A DNA stretch of 52,480 nt, from IMG/VR virus record IMGVR_UViG_2740892112_000005; one strand, given 5' to 3'. The translations under genes were made by a program, and so were the position numbers. The notes below the pieces were generated by a model. It was not told the origin of the DNA, did not search any database, and saw only the letters and a program-made list of their open reading frames with translations. Each line of letters starts with the position of its first letter. The stretch's first letter is position 1. The stretch is from a virus (taxonomy: Duplodnaviria; Heunggongvirae; Uroviricota; Caudoviricetes). This document shows positions 1,674 to 51,059 of the stretch, in pieces.

Positions 1674-3733
1674 TCCACAACCTCCCCAAGCTGCGCATCT
1701 GTTAGCTCTTTATGCCAGAGACGAAAATTCCTCACATGCCCAAATAAATGGCGTAATCCTGCTGTAGTTTGTCCACCAATGCGAATGGTTGCTGTACTCC
1801 GGATATATTCCCATTTGGTTTTAGTTTCGCTGCTTAACTTACCGTTACTGACTACACATGTGGACCGTTCGGACTTTACCCGCATACCAATAAGCATTTT
1901 TTCCAGCCCGGCATTTTCATTTATTCGTCGGTCTGAACCACCTATATCACAATACGGAAAACCGTCGTACCCACCTGATGAACCAAACCCCATTACGATC
2001 CCCGCATCTGCCTGATGCCGGTATGTGTCAAAAACACGCGGTGCTGCATTTGGCGTTTTATACCAGTTCTTATGTACCTCACAAAGAACCGTAAAAGGAA
2101 GATTATAAAGATTATTCTTAATCGGAACTGTAACCATATCGCTTGCCCGCGTTACCGGTGCCGTCCCCGTAACAATAAAAGATGATGCGCCTGTACCAGC
2201 CTCAATCTGTGGAGTGGTTACATCGAGATAATCCCCTGATGCAACCATCTGCCCTGTATCCGGAGAATACTGGACAAAACCACCAACCGTATTTTCTGTT
2301 GTATCTGCTTTTAATGTAGCCTCAAAAAATATCCAGCCAGTTGCATCATCCTTAACAGACCTTGCTGTAACACGGCTTGTCTGACCTGTCTTGCTAATTA
2401 TGCGGGTGGTAAGGTTCAGGTTTGCTGCTCCTATTGATGTCCTTACCTCCCCATCATAATGTTCAAATAAAATACGAACGGCGATATTATCAACTTCACT
2501 TTTTACCCGACAGGATATAGTTACATGCTTTTCGTCCCCTGAAGTATCAACCCCTCCGGTACTCGAATACAGTCCGATAATGGTATGCGCTTTACTTGTA
2601 CCAACAATCGAATCCTGTACGACAAACCGGCCATAATTAAACCCGAAACTATCTGTGCCTGTTTCTGTAACGTCCAGTGAAGTTGACTTATTCCACTTCG
2701 AAGGGTCTGTACTGTTCTGGAAGAAGTTCGTTCTTTGCCCCTCAATAAGCAGGCCATCACACTCAAATCGTGGCTCATTAATTTCCGCCGTTTTCAGTTC
2801 GCCAGATTTGTTGATATATGTTGCCGTTGATGCGCGACTGAAATTAACCTGTTTATCACTGGCAACCTGAACCACATTATCACCAATCTTCACTTTTTTA
2901 TAACCCGGAGAATAGCCCGTAATCATATCCAGCGAATCATTAAAGGGTATCCACACATCCGGCAGCGGCTGTAAAACATATCTGTACGGCTCTGCTGTCT
3001 GGTTTGCGTATTCTCTGGCAGCATCTTCACTTGCTTTTGCTGCCGTCTGGCTTGCTGCCGATGCTTTCGCCGAGTTCGCCGCCGCTGTTTCGCTCACCTT
3101 TGCGTTGGCTTCACTGTCTTTGGCATTCGTCTCACTGGTTTTCGCTGCCGTCTGGCTGGATTTTGCGTTTTTTTCGCTGGCCTTTGTGGCTGTCTCGCTA
3201 TTTTTCGCGCTGGTTTCTGATTTTTTGGCTGCTGTCGCGGAGTTTGCCGATGCAGTCTGCGAGGCCGCTGCCGCCTGTGCGCTGTTAGCTGCATTCGTTT
3301 CTGAGGTTTTCGCCGCGTTCTTCGATGATGCCGCTGCAGTTTCGGATTTCTTTGCTGCCGCTGCGCTCTGTGATGATGCTCCGGCATGACGTGCCACTTC
3401 ATTCACCATCAGCTCAAAACGGCGCAGTGCCTCCGGCATGACATCATCTTCCGTCATGGCGCCGAGAAAATCATTCAGCGTACCTGGTCTGGAACCTTCA
3501 TAGACGGTAATGGTCCCGGCATGTGAAGGCGGAAAATCTTCAACCAGCAGGGTGACGCTGTACTGGCCATACTCAACATCCATGCTGTAACGCCCGGCTT
3601 CATCCGGATTTTCAGAGGCCACCGTGTTCACCACCACCGTGCTGCTGGTTCGTCTGGCCTTCAGCACAATGGTGCAGTTCTGTACTGGTTTTCCTGTGCC
3701 ATCTTTAAGCACGCCAGAAATTTTTACTGTCAT
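1670..3733 (-). CDS. side tail fibre protein (Stf-like) with Ala/Lys/Ser/Thr-rich repeat region
   Basis: 687 aa; repetitive AAKxSETxA segment typical of lambdoid side tail fibres; sits after lom at the end of the tail module. Confidence 0.8.
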   Translation of the reverse strand: MTVKISGVLKDGTGKPVQNCTIVLKARRTSSTVVVNTVASENPDEAGRYSMDVEYGQYSVTLLVEDFPPSHAGTITVYEGSRPGTLNDFLGAMTEDDVMPEALRRFELMVNEVARHAGASSQSAAAAKKSETAAASSKNAAKTSETNAANSAQAAAASQTASANSATAAKKSETSAKNSETATKASEKNAKSSQTAAKTSETNAKDSEANAKVSETAAANSAKASAASQTAAKASEDAAREYANQTAEPYRYVLQPLPDVWIPFNDSLDMITGYSPGYKKVKIGDNVVQVASDKQVNFSRASTATYINKSGELKTAEINEPRFECDGLLIEGQRTNFFQNSTDPSKWNKSTSLDVTETGTDSFGFNYGRFVVQDSIVGTSKAHTIIGLYSSTGGVDTSGDEKHVTISCRVKSEVDNIAVRILFEHYDGEVRTSIGAANLNLTTRIISKTGQTSRVTARSVKDDATGWIFFEATLKADTTENTVGGFVQYSPDTGQMVASGDYLDVTTPQIEAGTGASSFIVTGTAPVTRASDMVTVPIKNNLYNLPFTVLCEVHKNWYKTPNAAPRVFDTYRHQADAGIVMGFGSSGGYDGFPYCDIGGSDRRINENAGLEKMLIGMRVKSERSTCVVSNGKLSSETKTKWEYIRSTATIRIGGQTTAGLRHLFGHVRNFRLWHKELTDAQLGEVVE

Positions 3734-30115: not shown

Positions 30116-30297
30116 GAATCCTCCCGGCCGGGATAATATTGTGAGTAAAATAAGGAGCGGGCTGAAGTCCGGAAGTTACAGGACAATGGCAGAAGAGAGA
30201 CGACAGCCCGCAATTCGAAAAAGACCGCGCAGTTGCGCAGCCTTATGAATTCTGGTTAAAATCCATTCGATTATAAAAATGTATATCTCATGCTGTT

Positions 30298-30322
30298 GCC
30301 CGAACCCACTCGGGCTTTTTTT
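30298..30322 (+). terminator. intrinsic terminator on + strand
   Basis: GCCCGAACCCACTCGGGC hairpin followed by TTTTTTT. Confidence 0.4.
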
Positions 30323-30590
30323 GCCCACAAGAAAGCCCCTCCGGAGAGGGGCTAAAGCCGCGTATCTGTATCATCATGCACATGGTGCCGGGTGCCTCCC
30401 GGTGAGTTCAGCCCGGTGCCACTAAACCCGCGTCATTCTCGTTTTGATAATCAGAGATTATACCGTCACCAGTCGCCCCTCCGCTCAGGGGGATTCACCA
30501 TGCGAAATTTTTTTAACAAATGCCCAGTCTGACAGGCAACTGTCAACTTACTGAATTGTGAGCAACATAGCATTTAACGGGGAACCTGTT
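30315..30590 (-). repeat. structured non-coding module, copy B (paralogue of 30815-31075), ending in an intrinsic terminator
   Basis: Shares with copy A the blocks CATGGTGAATCCCCCTG.GCGGAGGGGC, ACTCACCGGGAGGCACCCGGCACCATG and the terminator AGCCCCTCTCCGGAGGGGCT + U-run (- strand). Confidence 0.5.
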
Positions 30591-30599
30591 TTCTGCAGT

Positions 30600-30627
30600 A
30601 AAAAGGCCCACCGGAGCGGATGGGCCT
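30600..30627 (-). terminator. intrinsic terminator on - strand
   Basis: GGCCCA...TGGGCC hairpin followed by TTTTT on - strand. Confidence 0.4.
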
Positions 30628-30814
30628 GGAAGGATAGCGGTCATGTGATGCCGGTTTCCCGGTAACTCAGCACCGGTATCTGAGTCAACGTTTTCTCTAC
30701 TGGGTCATTTCCGATACGCCCTGCCTGCTGACAGGCTTTCATCACATCTGAAAATATAGCACCCTGACTGATACTGTAGTACCTAAGGTTCCAGAAACTG
30801 TGATGTATCCGGCA

Positions 30815-31075
30815 CAGAAAAGCCCCTCCGGAGAGGGGCTGGAGAGTGGCACTATGTGCCATTGCATGGTGCCGGGTGCCTCCCGGTGAGTTCAGTATCA
30901 GCACCTGAACCCGCACAGAAAGGATAAGGGTCGGTGACAAAACACCAGTTGCTGATTGCCCCTCCGCACAGGGGGATTCACCATGCCAGTTTCTTTTAAC
31001 AAACTCCCCGCAAACCAGACAACAGTCAACCGCCTGAATTGTGAGGTATTTAAAAATTTCAACGGGTAACTGATA
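30815..31075 (-). repeat. structured non-coding module, copy A, ending in an intrinsic terminator
   Basis: See copy B; terminator hairpin at 30821-30840 with U-run on - strand. Confidence 0.5.
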
Positions 31076-31843: not shown

Positions 31844-31920
31844 TGGCGCGTTGTACTGGATTCGAACCAGTGACCGATTGCTTAGAAGGCAATTGCTCTG
31901 TCCGGCTGAGCTAACAACGC
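31844..31920 (-). tRNA. argO: tRNA-Arg (anticodon UCU)
   Basis: Cloverleaf folded by hand: GCGTTGT acceptor, anticodon loop CTTCTAA, T-loop TTCGAAT, 3' CCA encoded. Confidence 0.85.
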
Positions 31921-31934
31921 AGAATGCCGATAAA

Positions 31935-32011
31935 TGGACCGCCATCGAGGACTCGAACCCCGCGCAACCAGCTTCGAAGGCTGGCGCTCTATCCCGATGA
32001 GCTAATGGCGG
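31935..32011 (-). tRNA. argN: tRNA-Arg (anticodon UCG)
   Basis: Cloverleaf folded by hand: anticodon stem CCAGC/GCTGG, loop CTTCGAA, T-loop TTCGAGT, CCA encoded. Confidence 0.8.
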
Positions 32012-32020
32012 TATGTGATA

Positions 32021-32096
32021 TGGTGGCCCTTGCTGGATTTGAACCAGCGACCTGGCGATTATGAGTCGCTCGCTCTCACCACTGAGCTAAAGGGCC
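32021..32096 (-). tRNA. ileZ: tRNA-Ile2-like (anticodon CAU, ileX/ileZ-type)
   Basis: GGCCCTT acceptor, anticodon loop CTCATAA, very similar to E. coli ileX; cannot exclude elongator Met identity from sequence alone. Confidence 0.8.
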
Positions 32097-38585: not shown

Positions 38586-38741
38586 TTACTCCTCAGGTTC
38601 GTAAGCTGTGAAGACAGCGACCTCCGTCTGGCCGGTTCGGATTCGTACCTCGCAGAGGTCTTTCCTCGTTACCAGTGCCGTCACAATGACGGTTAAACAG
38701 ATGACGATCAGGGCGATTAGCATCGCCTTTTGCTGCTTCAT
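38586..38741 (-). CDS. hok: Hok-family type I toxin (hok/gef-like); the longer in-frame ORF to 38798 may correspond to the mok-like upstream frame
   Basis: 51 aa MKQQKAMLIALIVICLTVIVTALVTRKDLCEVRIRTGQTEVAVFTAYEPEE; AAGGAGA RBS; Hok family hallmark TM + C-terminal Cys/charged tail. Confidence 0.8.
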   Translation of the reverse strand: MKQQKAMLIALIVICLTVIVTALVTRKDLCEVRIRTGQTEVAVFTAYEPEE

Positions 38742-39032
38742 AGCCTGCTTCTCCTTGCCTTTCGGCACGTAAGAGGCTAACCTACGTGTGTAGAGCATAG
38801 ATATGGCCTCAGATTAATGTTAAGCGTCTTGCCGGACGCGTAATGTTAACTGGGGCTTTTCTCTATCTGCCTTTTGGTGTTCATGCCTGAGACAGATAGC
38901 CTCAAGCACCCGCTGCAATTCTACTTAACTCTCCTTTTCCCGCAAACCGTTTTTATCCCCAGCGGCAAATCGAATACACCACCAGCGCCACCGCCATCGC
39001 AATTCCTACCGTTGTTAATGCTTCAGGCCAGG

Positions 39033-45710: not shown

Positions 45711-46172
45711 ATGAAAAAAACACGCGAAGTGATTGCAACTCCAGAAGCGAGCAAGAATTTAAAAGCCGCATGGAATGCAAGAAAAAAAGAGCTGAAGCTG
45801 ACTCAAGAGCTGGCGGCTGAGTTGTTGGGATTCGAATCTCAAGGCACCGTTAGCCAGTATCTGAACGGCAAGATACCGGTAAATACCGACGCTGCGCTAA
45901 AATTTGCGGCTCTGTTAAAGGTAAAACCAGAGGACATTCGAGAAGACCTTAAAGACTTAATGAATTATGTAAGATCATCAGATACTTATGATGATAACTT
46001 TTCAGGCAAAGGATGGAGGCTGGTCAATGAAGAACAGGCAGAGTTACTTAACCTCTTCGAGATTCTACCTGCGTCAGAAAAAGCCAAACTCCTTAACCAG
46101 CTACGTGGACTAAACAAGCTCTACGAGGAAGCCTTCGAGAACATGCTGGCACTAAAGAAACGTAACCAGTAG
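45711..46172 (+). CDS. prophage repressor, DicA/RacR-like XRE-family HTH protein
   Basis: 153 aa; N-terminal HTH (…LTQELAAELLGFESQGTVSQYLNG…), C-terminal LLNLFEILPASEKAKLL similar to DicA C-terminus. Confidence 0.7.
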   Translation: MKKTREVIATPEASKNLKAAWNARKKELKLTQELAAELLGFESQGTVSQYLNGKIPVNTDAALKFAALLKVKPEDIREDLKDLMNYVRSSDTYDDNFSGKGWRLVNEEQAELLNLFEILPASEKAKLLNQLRGLNKLYEEAFENMLALKKRNQ

Positions 46173-46325: not shown

Positions 46326-46354
46326 TTGACTTAAAATATCCGCGTTACTAATAT
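46326..46354 (+). promoter_or_regulatory. early-left promoter (TTGACT-17-TAATAT)
   Basis: Direct read; upstream of small-gene operon leading to DicF/dicB/exonuclease/xis/int. Confidence 0.5.
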
Positions 46355-46425
46355 TTCTATCAAGAACAGCACGGCGCTGTAGGTTTTAGTTCCGCCACCC
46401 GGCGTTAAGGGGAAATGAGGTCAGC

Positions 46426-46581
46426 ATGGATACTATCGAGCTTGGCAACAACGAATCTCTGGTGTACGGCGTGTTTCCCAACCAGGACGGCACATTCACC
46501 GCGATGACGTATACCAAAAGCAAAACGTTTAAAACCGAAAATGGTGCCCGTCGCTGGCTGGAAAGAAACTCAGGTGAGTGA
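46426..46581 (+). CDS. small hypothetical protein (51 aa)
   Basis: MDTIELGNNESLVYGVFPNQDGTFTAMTYTKSKTFKTENGARRWLERNSGE; GGGGAAATGAGG upstream. Confidence 0.35.
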   Translation: MDTIELGNNESLVYGVFPNQDGTFTAMTYTKSKTFKTENGARRWLERNSGE

Positions 46582-46582
46582 T

Positions 46583-46711
46583 ATGGATTTCGACACAATC
46601 ATGGAAAAGGCTTACGAAGAATACTTCGATGGTCTTGCCGAAGGCGAAGAAGCTCTCAGCTTCAGTGAATTTAAACAGGCGCTTTCCAGTTCGGGAAAAT
46701 CTAACGGCTGA
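46583..46711 (+). CDS. small acidic hypothetical protein (42 aa)
   Basis: Starts 2 nt after previous stop. Confidence 0.3.
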   Translation: MDFDTIMEKAYEEYFDGLAEGEEALSFSEFKQALSSSGKSNG

Positions 46712-46740
46712 TAAGCGAAACAGCACCGCGAGGAATCAGT

Positions 46741-46980
46741 ATGCAGAAACGAGAACCCGTCATCATCGCGCCAGACTATACCGATGATGAACTTTATGAG
46801 TGGATGCGCCAGAAAATTAATGCAGTGCAGGATCTGAAATGGGCCAATGAAGCCAGGACTAAGCAGGCTGAAAATCTGTCCGCTCTGGAGCAGGATATCA
46901 CCAGGCTGGAAAAAAGCAGCGGCATTAAGCATTGCCAGAATGGTTACATACCCACGTTAATAGCTAACCAACGAGGCTAA
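46741..46980 (+). CDS. hypothetical early protein
   Basis: 79-aa ORF. Confidence 0.4.
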   Translation: MQKREPVIIAPDYTDDELYEWMRQKINAVQDLKWANEARTKQAENLSALEQDITRLEKSSGIKHCQNGYIPTLIANQRG

Positions 46981-46982
46981 TA

Positions 46983-47303
46983 ATGGAATTTAAAGATTTA
47001 CCAATGCCATTCCAGGAAATGGCAGCGAATATAGTTCGTTCCCAACTGGCGACTCTTGACCTGAGTACCGTAGAAAAAGAAACCATCGATACTATATCCG
47101 GTAACGTGCGTCGTGCCTTTATCGGTCTGTACGAAGAGAAGCAGCTCTCTGATAACCAGGATTTACATGAAAAATACTTCCTGGATCTAATGGACATCAT
47201 TGATAAGGGGTTTGGCTTGTTAATGAAAACGAAAGGGATTCGAATAGAACCCCTTGAAAATTACTTTGCAACAAAAAGCATTAATTCTTTTGATTCAAAA
47301 TAA
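46983..47303 (+). CDS. hypothetical early protein
   Basis: 106-aa ORF starting 3 nt after previous stop. Confidence 0.4.
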   Translation: MEFKDLPMPFQEMAANIVRSQLATLDLSTVEKETIDTISGNVRRAFIGLYEEKQLSDNQDLHEKYFLDLMDIIDKGFGLLMKTKGIRIEPLENYFATKSINSFDSK

Positions 47304-47556
47304 GAGAATTAATTACAGACTTAACATGCTCTTTCTCATGATTGAAGCTCTCATGATTGAAAGTGCCGGGTTGAAGCGAGTCGATATAATCAACAAGACT
47401 CTGTCGTACGACTTCATTTTTATCCATAACAGATGCAAGAAATGAAATTGCTAAAAGAGTTATATCACTACGCGCCGCAGCATGCTGCAATGCTTTATCA
47501 AAATTATTAATCTGGCGTATCAGGGAGTTAATGATTTCATCATTTTCAGTCGACAT
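47281..47556 (-). CDS. hypothetical 91-aa protein encoded antisense to the early-left operon
   Basis: Start at internal Met MSTENDEIIN with AGGAGGG RBS; AT-rich body; no motif recognised. Confidence 0.4.
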   Translation of the reverse strand: MSTENDEIINSLIRQINNFDKALQHAAARSDITLLAISFLASVMDKNEVVRQSLVDYIDSLQPGTFNHESFNHEKEHVKSVINSLILNQKN

Positions 47557-47891
47557 TTCACCCTCCTGAGGGTTGGTGATTAAGGAGTTCTCCACGGGTG
47601 AGGTGGAGTGCGTGCGCCGGACACGGGTGAGCATCCGGCACTGACAGTTTACTGAAAGGATATTTCCCTGAAAAGTCAGACCATAACGCGAAAGCGCTCG
47701 GCGAGGTAGCTGGTTCATAGATAGCCTGTCGTTAAATTTTCGTCGACCGTGCGCTTCCGGTTGTGGCAATCCGCGAAATGGCGCGGCGGTAAGTATGGCG
47801 GGGTTATTCCTTCCCCCGTTGAGGACACCGGGTTGTCAGGTTGACCATACGCTTAAGTGACAACCCCGCTGCAACGCCCTCTGTTATCAAT

Positions 47892-47949
47892 TTTCTGGTG
47901 ACGTTTGGCGGTATCAGTTTTACTCCGTGACTGCTCTGCCGCCCTTTTT
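47892..47949 (+). ncRNA. dicF: DicF small RNA (cell-division inhibitor sRNA) with intrinsic terminator
   Basis: TTTCTGGTGACGTTTGGCGGTATCAGTTTTACTCCGTGACTGCTCTGCCGCCCTTTTT matches the DicF sequence as I recall it; immediately upstream of dicB. Confidence 0.7.
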
Positions 47950-48118
47950 AAAGTGAATTTTGTGATGTGGTGAATGCGGCTGAGCGCACGCGGAACAGTT
48001 AAAACCAAAAACAGTGTTATGGGTGGATTCTCTGTATCCGGCGTTAATTGTTAACTGGTTAACGTCACCTGGAGGCACCAGGCACCGCATCACAAAATTC
48101 ATTGTTGAGGACGCGATA

Positions 48119-48307
48119 ATGGAAACGTTATTACCAAACGTTAATACGTCTGAAGGTTGTTTTGAAATTGGTGTCACTATCAGTAACCCTGTATTTACTG
48201 AAGATGCCATTAACAAGAGAAAACACGAACGGGAGTTATTAAATAAAATATGCATTCTTTCAATGCTGGCCCGTTTACGTCCGATACAAAAAGGATGTGC
48301 ACAATGA
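48119..48307 (+). CDS. dicB: DicB cell-division inhibitor
   Basis: 62 aa METLLPNVNTSEGCFEIGVTISNPVFTEDAINKRKHERELLNKICILSMLARL...; GAGGA RBS. Confidence 0.7.
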   Translation: METLLPNVNTSEGCFEIGVTISNPVFTEDAINKRKHERELLNKICILSMLARLRPIQKGCAQ

Positions 48308-48495
48308 ATACAGCATTTGCACTTGTTCTGACAGTTTTTCTTGTTTCCGGAGAGCCAGTTGATATTGCAGTCAGTGTTCACAGGACAATGCAGGAGTGTG
48401 TGACTGCAGCAACCGAACAGAAAATTCCCGGTAACTGTTACCCGGTCGATAAAGTTATTCACCAGGATAATAACGAAATCCCGGCAGGTCTTTAA
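48304..48495 (+). CDS. ydfD: YdfD-like small membrane/lysis protein
   Basis: 63 aa MNTAFALVLTVFLVSGEPVDIAVSV...; ATGA overlap with dicB. Confidence 0.55.
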   Translation: MNTAFALVLTVFLVSGEPVDIAVSVHRTMQECVTAATEQKIPGNCYPVDKVIHQDNNEIPAGL

Positions 48496-48587
48496 AACAG
48501 TTCCGTAATAAATATCCGGTTTCATTCTTATATGCCAGCAATGGCAGGGATTTGTTCACCCTTAAATCTGTAATGAGGTAAAACAAA

Positions 48588-51059
48588 ATGAGTAAAGTCT
48601 TTATTTGCGCCGCCATTCCGGACGAACAGGCAATAAAGGAAGAAGGTGCAGTCGCTGTAGCCACTGCCATTGAAGCCGGTGATGAACGTCGCGCCCGCGC
48701 AAAATTTCACTGGCAATTCCTGGAACATTATCCGGCTGCTCAGGACTGCGCTTATAAATTTATTGTCTGTGAGGATAAACCCGGCATACCCCGCCCTGCC
48801 CTCGATTCCTGGGATGCTGAATATATGCAGGAAAACCGCTGGGATGAGGAGTCTGCTTCCTTTGTCCCGGTTGAGACTGAATCAGATCCGATGAACGTCA
48901 CTTTTGACAAGTTGGCCCCTGAAGTACAGAACGCTGTCATGGTTAAGTTCGACACATGTGAAAACATCACCGTTGATATGGTTATTAGCGCACAGGAATT
49001 GTTGCAGGAAGACATGGCAACATTCGACGGACATATCGTTGAAGCGTTGATGAAAATGCCAGAAGTTAACGCCATGTATCCGGAGCTTAAGCTGCATGCC
49101 ATCGGGTGGGTTAAGCATAAATGTAAGCCTGGTGCCAAATGGCCCGAAATTCAGGCAGAGATGCGCATCTGGAAAAAACGTCGCGAAGGTGAACGCAAGG
49201 AAACCGGAAAATACACGTCTGTTGTTGATCTCGCCCGCGCCAGAACCAATCAACAGCACAGTGAAAATTCAACAGGAAAAATCAGCCCGGTCATTGCTGC
49301 CATTCATCGCGAATACAAGCAGACATGGAAAACACTGGATGACGAACTGGCCTACGCTCTCTGGCCTGGTGATGTGGATGCCGGAAACATTGACGGCAGC
49401 ATCCATCGCTGGGCAAAAAATGAAGTTATCGACAACGACCGCGAAGACTGGAAGCGTATCTCGGCATCAATGCGCAAACAGCCTGATGCCCTTCGCTACG
49501 ACCGCCAGACTATTTTTGGCCTTGTCCGTGAACGTCCGATCGACATTCACAAAGACCCTGTGGCACTGAACAAATACATTACTGAATACCTGACTACAAA
49601 GGGCGTGTTTGAAGATGAAGGAAGAAATCAGAGCGCAACTGATACTCTCTCGTCGCCAGTACCAGAAACTGATGCAGTGGAAACGGCAATGCCGGACAAC
49701 GAAAAAACCGAATGCGAAGTGGAAGACGAACCATCTGTAGAGCGTGAGGGACCGTTCTACTTCCTTTTCACCGATAAGGACGGCGAAAAATACGGTCGCG
49801 CAAACAAACTTTCTGGTCTGGAAAAAGCACTGGCCCTGGGAGCTACGGAAATCACAAAAGAGGAATACTTCGCACGTAAAAACGGCACGTACTCTGGTTC
49901 ACAACAAAATACTGGTGCATCTGACACGATCGCACAACCAGAGCCGGTAAAAGTTACCGCTGACGAAGTAAACAAAATTATGCAGGCAGCCAATATCAGC
50001 CAGCCTGACGCCAATAAGTTGCTTGCTGTATCACGTGGTGAATTTGTTGCAGGGATTAGCGACCCGAATGATCCGAAATGGGTGAAGGGGATTGAAACCC
50101 GCGATTCAGTGAATCAGAACCAGCAAGAAACGGAACAGAACGGCCAGAAAGCGGAACAAAACAGCCCAAATGCGTTACAAAACGAGCCAGAAACGAAACA
50201 GCCTGAACCAGTGGCGCAACAGGAAGTGGAAAAAGTCTGCACCGCCTGCGGTCAGACCGGCGGCGGCAACTGCCCTGATTGTGGCGCGGTGATGGGCGAC
50301 GCAACATACCAGGAAACATTCGATGAAGAGTATCAGGTTGAAGTTCAGGAAGATGATCCGGAGGAAATGGAAGGCGCTGAACATCCACACAAGGAGAACA
50401 CTGACGGCAATCAGCATCACGATAGCGATAATGAAACTGGCGAGACGGCAGATCACTCAATTAAGGTGAACGGTCATCAAGAAATCACATCCACCAGCAG
50501 GACGTGTGACCATCTAATGATCGACCTTGAAACCATGGGAAAAAATCCTGATGCCCCGATCATCTCAATAGGTGCAATATTTTTCGATCCGCAAACCGGA
50601 GATATGGGACCGGAATTTAGTAAGACTATCGATCTGGAAACTGCTGGCGGGGTCATTGATCGGGACACCATTAAATGGTGGCTTAAGCAATCACGCGAAG
50701 CGCAATCTGCCATTATGACCGATGAAATCCCGTTAGATGATGCACTGTTACAATTGCGGGAATTTATCGACGAAAACTCCGGTGAATTTTTTGTTCAGGT
50801 CTGGGGAAATGGAGCCAACTTCGACAACACGATTTTGCGCCGTTCATACGAACGGCAGGGGATCCCCTGCCCGTGGCGTTACTACAACGATCGCGATGTA
50901 CGCACAATCGTTGAGCTGGGGAAAGCCATAGACTTCGATGCCAGAACGGCTATTCCATTCGAAGGTGAGCGCCATAATGCACTTGATGACGCCCGTTACC
51001 AGGCAAAATACGTTTCAGTTATCTGGCAAAAACTGATCCCGAATCAGGCTGATTTTTAA
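48588..51059 (+). CDS. RecE-like recombination exonuclease with C-terminal DnaQ-like (DEDDh) 3'-5' exonuclease domain
   Basis: 823 aa; segment ...LLAVSRGEFVAGISDPNDPKWVKGIETRD... resembles RecE; C-terminus has MIDLETMG...GNGANFD...HNALDDA exonuclease motifs. Confidence 0.7.
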   Translation: MSKVFICAAIPDEQAIKEEGAVAVATAIEAGDERRARAKFHWQFLEHYPAAQDCAYKFIVCEDKPGIPRPALDSWDAEYMQENRWDEESASFVPVETESDPMNVTFDKLAPEVQNAVMVKFDTCENITVDMVISAQELLQEDMATFDGHIVEALMKMPEVNAMYPELKLHAIGWVKHKCKPGAKWPEIQAEMRIWKKRREGERKETGKYTSVVDLARARTNQQHSENSTGKISPVIAAIHREYKQTWKTLDDELAYALWPGDVDAGNIDGSIHRWAKNEVIDNDREDWKRISASMRKQPDALRYDRQTIFGLVRERPIDIHKDPVALNKYITEYLTTKGVFEDEGRNQSATDTLSSPVPETDAVETAMPDNEKTECEVEDEPSVEREGPFYFLFTDKDGEKYGRANKLSGLEKALALGATEITKEEYFARKNGTYSGSQQNTGASDTIAQPEPVKVTADEVNKIMQAANISQPDANKLLAVSRGEFVAGISDPNDPKWVKGIETRDSVNQNQQETEQNGQKAEQNSPNALQNEPETKQPEPVAQQEVEKVCTACGQTGGGNCPDCGAVMGDATYQETFDEEYQVEVQEDDPEEMEGAEHPHKENTDGNQHHDSDNETGETADHSIKVNGHQEITSTSRTCDHLMIDLETMGKNPDAPIISIGAIFFDPQTGDMGPEFSKTIDLETAGGVIDRDTIKWWLKQSREAQSAIMTDEIPLDDALLQLREFIDENSGEFFVQVWGNGANFDNTILRRSYERQGIPCPWRYYNDRDVRTIVELGKAIDFDARTAIPFEGERHNALDDARYQAKYVSVIWQKLIPNQADF

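Follow-up and report, generated by a model that had tools for sequence, protein, structure and literature searches.

The closest described systems to the gene analyzed here are sieB of the lambdoid prophages, the dicF precursor of the Qin prophage of Escherichia coli K-12, and the accessory genes of prophages known as morons. DicF regulates cell division, metabolism, and the virulence of enterohemorrhagic E. coli, DicB protects against phage, and dicBF has been much studied. In the Rac prophage of K-12, the order is racR, ydaG, ydaF (DUF1391), sieB, a gap of 168 nucleotides (nt), KilS, kilR, ydaE, racC, and recE, with sieB alone oriented against the others and overlapping ydaF by 4 bp. KilS is a small RNA (sRNA) verified by northern blot (PMC8175672). 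In phage lambda, sieB is the sole antisense gene of the pL operon and abuts N, and in P22 it is described as prophage-expressed (PMC10883804). Here we describe w91, a minus-strand open reading frame (ORF) of 91 amino acids (aa) beside DicF in IMG/VR record IMGVR_UViG_2740892112_000005, a Caudoviricetes sequence whose full 52,480 nt we call the window. Judged by gene order, w91 holds a slot equivalent to that of sieB, and by homology it is not a SieB protein. We put the chances at about even that w91 is a genuine accessory gene, or moron, in this antisense slot that would be transcribed independently and would serve in exclusion or interference.

Position of w91 relative to sieB and the Qin dicF precursor

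Positions ~45.3 to 51 kb span the immunity and early-left genes of a Qin/Rac-type lambdoid prophage, running from the repressor through ydfA (DUF1391) and further genes to w91, DicF, an STnc100-like element, and dicB. An earlier sequence-only reading of this stretch had noticed that all neighboring early-left genes are on the plus strand, and this was the case for the helix-turn-helix (HTH) repressor, ydfA, ydfB, ydfC, a 106-aa gene, DicF, dicB, ydfD, and an 823-aa exonuclease. In both Rac and lambda, sieB is, like w91, antisense in the early-left operon, convergent with its first genes, and near a division-inhibitor module. The Rac module places a DicF-family sRNA, an STnc100-like element, and the division inhibitor kilR alongside sieB, and w91 has DicF, an STnc100-like element, and dicB. 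The DicF model scored 39 bits in the KilS region of Rac, inside the annotated sRNA, with the STnc100-like element and then kilR following. The features of the locus and of its Rac counterpart are as follows.

47281–47556, minus strand: w91, 91 aa, stop codon included, with its ATG at 47556–47554
47557–47570, minus strand: translation-initiation segment, CCTCAGGAGGGTGAA 5′ of the w91 ATG, absent from K-12 Qin
47571–47892, both strands: conserved ydfC-dicF spacer; on the plus strand the dicF precursor and ydfC 3′ untranslated region (UTR), on the minus strand the region upstream of w91
47893–47944, plus strand: DicF sRNA (Rfam RF00039, 76.7 bits, gathering score 48, E = 3e-15)
47956–48096, plus strand: STnc100-like element between dicF and dicB, sub-threshold at 38.4 bits
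46981–47570, no strand assigned: block of 590 bp absent from K-12 Qin, carrying both convergent genes
46983–47303, plus strand: 106-aa gene (WP_000394526.1, phrog_6937), convergent with w91 and overlapping it by 23 bp
47334–47363, minus strand: 15-nt tandem unit in two copies (HESFN-HESFN), inside w91
45711–46172, plus strand: HTH repressor, from the ORF list and annotation
2723–2909 of the K-12 Rac locus (L224), minus strand: STnc100-like/DicF-like pair between sieB and kilR

The correspondence does not extend to sequence. sieB had no sequence similarity to w91 (Pfam), the Rac SieB is 162 aa by its annotated coordinates and thus ~2 times as long as w91, which is 91 aa and acidic, and the proximal upstream sequence and Shine-Dalgarno (SD) sequence of the w91 slot are not shared with Rac sieB. 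A 93-aa homologue of w91 in Salmonella lies in a Rac-like prophage at the place of sieB, beside a DicF-like RNA (36 bits). Rac KilS and the distal spacer are 69% identical to the corresponding Salmonella segment. Because the place and orientation of w91 match those of sieB in K-12 Rac and lambda, an accessory or exclusion role is our best guess. Exclusion is plausible from position and analogy and is the best available hypothesis, and w91 is probably expressed in the lysogen.

BLAST of the window against K-12 Qin gave two collinear blocks, 46388–46980 (96% identity) and 47571–48600 (97.3% over 1030 nt), which correspond to positions 1470–2062 and 2063–3091 of the K-12 locus. The first block ends 20 nt past K-12 ydfC and the second resumes at the next K-12 base. 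Since 47571–48600 is collinear with K-12 Qin, we identify 47571–47892 by alignment as the ordinary ydfC-dicF spacer, a long untranslated region in which RNase E makes the 5′ end of DicF (PMC5069750, PMC9438474); for K-12 the cleavage is credited to Faubladier et al. 1990 as cited in PMC5069750. The sequence-only reading had taken the ~330 bp upstream of w91 for a long GC-rich leader of the gene that might hold a processed RNA element. GC content was indeed 49–57% in the spacer and 31–41% within the w91 ORF, and the processed element is the published dicF precursor. The leader is not peculiar to w91, as from 47571 onward it is the conserved Qin-type spacer at 97% identity to K-12, dicF precursor segment included, which thousands of loci have in common, and several unrelated antisense genes adjoin its proximal end. 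This likeness covers the whole spacer, but K-12 Qin is without the SD segment, the antisense gene, and the 106-aa gene, and its dicF precursor has a published role as plus-strand RNA only. The proximal 140 nt of the leader (47554–47696) were 79% conserved in the Salmonella Rac-like prophage. An Rfam scan of the spacer on both strands returned no family. Positions 46980–47950 as a whole were 100% identical to several human E. coli isolates, e.g. strain M1/5 as well as an O25:H4 strain.

On the other side of DicF, 47882–48128 in the dicF-dicB spacer is 98% identical to 249906–250152 of MT713136.1, the record of the Aeromonas jumbo phage AP1, and the same spacer is ~89% identical to Actinobacillus phage vB_Apl-pPE4. 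These matches could be contamination or an unusual transfer.

Coding status of w91 and relatives of its protein

The ORF and its good ribosome-binding site were as first read from the letters: an AGGAGGG SD (47567–47561) stands 4 nt 5′ of the w91 ATG. RefSeq carries the product as hypothetical protein WP_000102678.1. At 35% GC, the chance of a 91-codon open frame is ~0.001 per start. Two alleles of w91 differed at 43/276 positions (84% nucleotide identity), with the frame open in both and the amino acid replacements between them conservative. The ratio of nonsynonymous to synonymous divergence (dN/dS, Nei-Gojobori, two alleles) was 0.30 in the annotated frame vs 0.48–1.6 in the other five frames. 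All indels seen were in-frame, such as a 15-nt indel in locus L008, and the HESFN unit was present in 1, 2, or 3 copies across genomes, which gives w91 variants of 86, 91, or 96 aa. By these measures w91 codes for a protein under moderate purifying selection.

It is accordingly very hard to credit w91 as a chance open frame that is not expressed. As might be expected of such a frame, no known domain was recognized in the product, and another gene overlaps the ORF at its 3′ end. Yet of the six frames this one has the lowest dN/dS, it stays open across alleles 84% identical and relatives of ~28% identity, a strong SD precedes it, and RefSeq and a PHROG-related family each list it independently. 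The synonymous divergence (dS) between the two alleles was 0.40 and was restricted to the ORF, with flanks ~98% identical by eye. Such a pattern resembles replacement of one allele by another through recombination, with the SD as one of the breakpoints.

The start codon needed separate attention. The statement in the sequence-only reading that the leader has no ORF on either strand does not hold, as the minus-strand frame is open from the w91 ATG up to a TTG at 47769 (162 aa), with an in-frame ATG at ~47717. Some records annotate 127- or 145-aa forms of w91. We rejected the extended forms (127, 145, and 162 aa) because L087-type variants have stop codons within the extension. The upstream extension is therefore non-coding, and the SD-preceded ATG at 47556 is the true start.

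The w91 protein is acidic (isoelectric point, pI, 5.4), with a grand average of hydropathy of −0.31, and is predicted to be soluble. It had no hydrophobic or membrane segment (maximum Kyte-Doolittle mean of 1.43 over 19 residues). A word-indexed search of 5.8 billion proteins with w91 gave 15 clusters, all from E. coli, and an exhaustive phmmer search of 1.84 billion representatives found nothing credible beyond close E. coli relatives. A profile with a 92-aa protein of the same genomic position among its members retrieved 92/93-aa relatives in E. coli and Salmonella with 26–32% identity, full-length and collinear, and hhalign gave E = 6.8e-5 with a probability of 63%. Homologues were confined to E. 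coli, E. albertii, and Salmonella, and all were hypothetical with none named. By these searches w91 is an orphan family restricted to Enterobacteriaceae. PHROGs contributed one weak match, to a family of unknown function, and NCBIfam only noise. The remote homology search that the sequence-only reading had suggested yielded hypothetical relatives only and nothing that names a function. Among complete E. coli genomes, 198/5426 carried w91.

A recurrent antisense slot

w91 is not the only gene at this site. At least four sequence-unrelated families of small minus-strand genes (66–93 aa) start with an ATG at the same slot. The segment CCTCAGGAGGGTGAA was common to the 91-, 92-, 73-, and 77-aa genes, which diverge from the ATG onward, and the minus-strand proteins were unrelated to each other by BLASTP except for w91 and the 92-aa protein. 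In mEp460 it is a 66-aa gene that occupies the same site, with an upstream sequence of its own. A 69-aa occupant (L217) has a variant SD with the same leader, and a further occupant is a TTG-started relative of the 73-aa gene. Every slot occupant was assigned to a PHROG of unknown function, and most were small, acidic, and soluble. The pairs of convergent genes at the slot are as follows.

This window: plus-strand gene of 106 aa, minus-strand gene of 91 aa
Loci L012–L014: plus-strand gene of 133 aa, minus-strand gene of 92 aa
E. coli loci L009–L011: plus-strand gene of 124 aa, minus-strand gene of 73 aa
PPompW-type phages: plus-strand gene of 135 aa, minus-strand gene of 77 aa
mEp460: plus-strand gene of 121 aa, minus-strand gene of 66 aa

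We took a census of the slot in 104 viral contigs anchored solely on the conserved leader hairpin. Sixty-five sites were empty in the K-12 manner, two had the plus-strand gene alone, and 34 were occupied, such that about a third of the sampled DicF leaders (34/104) had an antisense occupant. The exact sequences of five occupant genes were each found on at least ~1000 contigs. The junctions of empty sites varied (47571 in K-12, 47593 in the type with only the 124-aa gene) while occupied sites shared one, and we therefore read the empty sites as deletion derivatives, which is what the junctions suggest. Exchange of occupants by recombination in the conserved flanks is suggested because different prophages hold different small proteins at the slot. 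A full-text literature search found no gene on the opposite strand beside dicF, no defence hotspot at dicF, no antisense transcription at ydfC, and no mention of the accession numbers. In the literature searched the slot is undescribed, and by the comparisons above it is a recurrent cassette slot.

Each occupant faces a plus-strand partner. The partner proteins had a conserved N-terminus of ~55 residues (MEFKDLP...) and differing C-termini. An AlphaFold2 (AF2) model of the 106-aa partner of w91 had a mean predicted local distance difference test (pLDDT) score of 69, and Foldseek found no neighbor of it below E = 0.4 in PDB or BFVD. The partner family is itself mosaic, in that proteins P0092 and P0096 have a different N-terminal module, MEFKDLPKEIQTIAATTLGDSLVKIDPAYTKKE, in front of the shared central and C-terminal parts. 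At the edge of the block, ydfC (46741–46980) has one extra A in an A-run at ~46909–46915 relative to loci L006 and L007, which makes it 79 aa and not the 72 aa of K-12; RefSeq marks ydfC as frameshifted in a genome identical to the window.

The facing genes could form a cognate module, in which the minus-strand product would be a lysogen effector and the C-terminal domain of the plus-strand product its early-lytic neutralizer, like SieB and Esc of P22, with the 3′ overlap giving mutual antisense control. Every cassette type does have a plus-strand gene that overlaps the 3′ end of the minus-strand gene, by 11–41 bp, and the plus-strand C-terminus varies with the minus-strand type (133 aa with 92, 135 with 77, and 121 with 66). 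In Salmonella the 93-aa gene keeps the same 41-bp overlap, and its partner is a 71-aa protein whose similarity to the E. coli 133-aa protein is limited to the C-terminal domain of the latter. Physical linkage alone, however, would give the co-inheritance seen, and searches of Pfam, NCBIfam, and PADLOC found no homology to toxin-antitoxin families. w91 and the 106-aa gene are convergent, unlike the co-directional bicistronic operon of toxin-antitoxin systems. Moreover, w91 is without a private partner domain. The 124-aa plus-strand protein was found both without any minus-strand gene and with the 73-aa gene, and its truncation by the cassette end gives the 106/109-aa partner of w91. The same C-terminal domain occurred with no minus-strand gene, with the 73-aa gene, and with the 91-aa gene. 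The minus-strand gene is therefore separable from the plus-strand gene. The same w91 allele also occurred with different repressor types. We regard a cognate module as quite unlikely.

Transcription and possible role of w91

We propose that w91 would be transcribed on its own in the quiescent prophage, opposing the repressed dicBF operon, and that its transcript would end at a hairpin 26–48 nt past the stop codon. Upon induction, convergent early-left transcription would silence it. The product would target a second protein; its likeliest effect would be to keep out superinfecting phages or interfere with them, and otherwise it would alter the host in some way. The signals and structures that bear on this proposal are as follows.

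47233–47255, minus strand: predicted terminator-like hairpin AAGGGGTTC-TATTC-GAATCCCTT followed by TCGTTTTC, 9 bp and a T-tract, inside the plus-strand gene
47646–47674, minus strand: best candidate sigma-70 promoter of w91, TTTTCA-17-TAAACT, with a start at ~47639, equivalent to K-12 genome coordinate ~1,649,131; weak
48054–48027, minus strand: second candidate from the position weight matrix (PWM), TTAACA-16-GAGAAT, upstream of dicF
47590–47608 and 47616–47639, no strand assigned: two adjacent hairpins, CTCCAC/GTGGAG and GCCGGA/TCCGGC, each carrying CACGGGTGAG

The terminator-like hairpin, 26–48 nt past the w91 stop, was present in both the minimum-energy and the centroid structures (z = −2.8 for a 99-nt stretch). 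A second minus-strand terminator-like hairpin lies inside ydfC at 46937–46920. TAA[AG]CTG was a conserved island in a variable stretch in E. coli and Salmonella variants, and it is also part of a hairpin with co-varying arms. The opposing early-left operon has a promoter, TTGACT-17-TAATAT, at 46326 on the plus strand.

Prophage morons, e.g. STMMW_20121 of ST64B and lambda rexAB, lom, and bor, share several traits with w91. Near-identical prophages either have w91 or lack it (flanks 96–97% vs K-12), its GC content is lower than that of its flanks (35% vs 43–57%), it is antisense to lytic genes, and a predicted terminator-like hairpin follows it. Loci that run antisense to lytic genes are regarded as typical accessory loci, and for one of them transcription in lysogens from a promoter of its own has been shown (PMC7067206). 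A classical moron comes with its own promoter, whereas w91 has only 14 nt of cassette-specific sequence 5′ of its ATG, and any promoter must therefore lie in the shared dicF spacer. We also considered the uncharacterized Gifsy-1 gene STMMW_26411 of S. Typhimurium D23580, which is reported to be transcribed only anaerobically (PMC7067206), as a possible slot gene. The Gifsy-1 record of strain LT2 had no antisense gene in the early-left region, and tblastn of the 93-aa Salmonella protein against phages gave no match.

The spacer RNA itself might be what matters. Either the minus-strand RNA or the act of transcription could be functional, with a spacer promoter that opposes dicBF and damps leaky expression of toxic DicF and DicB, and the ORFs would then be passengers. 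The spacer was conserved in K-12-type loci that have no minus-strand ORF. The many potential stems seen by the sequence-only reading hold up for one strand, as folding of the spacer RNA surpassed that of shuffles on the minus strand, with z = −3.5 in the window and −3.3 to −4.2 in three homologues, and not on the plus strand, with z = −1.0 in the window and −1.7 to −2.0 in the homologues. Taken over four homologues, z ran from −2.7 to −4.2 for the minus strand and from −1.1 to −2.0 for the plus strand. Wobble pairs in hairpin A also fit the minus strand. However, this strand asymmetry in z is mostly a composition effect, because the absolute energies are similar, and the wobble-only pair types across three hairpins, 5 for the minus strand vs 3 for the plus strand, do not differ significantly. 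Plus-strand processing of dicF suffices to account for conservation of the spacer, purifying selection acts on the slot ORFs, and a strong SD at fixed spacing is retained in at least three families. We therefore consider a purely RNA- or transcription-based function improbable. The leader also has the hairpin pair with CACGGGTGAG, a 10-mer that occurs at 47593–47602 and 47622–47631, 29 nt apart and in or at the hairpin loops; these are its only exact copies in the 52 kb. The paired hairpins were conserved in 51/51 leader variants, with almost invariant arms.

A protein function could also belong to the lytic cycle. In that case w91, small and acidic, might inhibit a host protein or a defence protein in an anti-restriction or anti-defence role and be transcribed rightward after induction. 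It shares its small size, acidity (pI 5.4), helical structure, and solubility with most slot occupants, an arms race would be expected to leave numerous unrelated families and strongly diverged alleles at a single site, as seen here, and neither the consensus scan nor the PWM identified a lysogenic promoter. Against this, w91 is convergent with a strong early-left operon, with which its transcription would collide during lytic growth, all other early genes are on the opposite strand, and the positional equivalent sieB is described as prophage-expressed in P22 (PMC10883804). We consider a lytic inhibitor unlikely, if the most serious competitor to an accessory gene of the lysogen.

The reading of w91 as a lysogen-expressed accessory gene with a part in exclusion has a number of observations to contend with. 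Among small acidic helical phage proteins, inhibitors acting early in the lytic cycle are commoner than excluders expressed in the lysogen, and SieB is a membrane protein, whereas w91 has no membrane segment. Homology gave no support for defence: hmmscan of w91 against Pfam-A returned no family at E ≤ 0.1, the SieB family included, the best match in PADLOC-DB 2.0 was a non-significant one to BrxA (E = 0.014, 12.7 bits), and neither w91 nor the 106-aa protein had a significant toxin or antitoxin match in Pfam, NCBIfam, or PADLOC. The AF2 model of w91, three helices with a pLDDT of 67, is of modest confidence, and Foldseek found no fold neighbor in PDB or BFVD (none below E = 0.4). The consensus scan of the minus strand of the spacer found no promoter, and the best PWM candidate, at 8.3, was no better than shuffles (median best 7.9). 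At the DNA level w91 was absent from all 50,697 deposited phage genomes and is therefore known only from prophages. The literature searched contained no transcript, ribosome-profiling, or phenotype data for w91. The earlier suggestion of a lysogen-expressed exclusion or toxin-like gene thus survives in part, in that the gene is genuine and its place and orientation match sieB, while the lack of SieB or defence homology and of a convincing promoter tells against the rest.

A broader version of this proposal would take in all the occupants. The proximal upstream region of dicF/KilS and the fixed SD may together be a dedicated antisense platform, a sieB slot, for swapped cassettes (w91 and the 92/93-, 73-, 77-, and 66/69-aa genes) that would be expressed in the lysogen for exclusion or other anti-phage functions, be turned off on induction by convergent dicBF transcription, and possibly be controlled by the CACGGGTGAG hairpins in their 5′ UTR. 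We offer this tentatively and with more doubt than belief.

RNA features of the prophage outside this locus (30268–31015, 31847–32096, and 38736–38911) include AsxR (anti-stx2 sRNA), which scored 63 bits, exactly at threshold, beside two full copies of STnc100, and also three tRNA genes and one sok antitoxin RNA.

If the slot genes are ordinary passengers, the gain is one of annotation, with the ATG at 47556 as the true start and the 127-, 145-, and 162-aa forms as artefacts. For work on dicBF, anyone who deletes or reads out the "untranslated" ydfC-dicF spacer may also be touching a second, antisense transcription unit. The slot genes are a compact and easily testable set of candidates for lysogenic conversion or exclusion in E. 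coli lineages of clinical importance, ST131-like strains among them.

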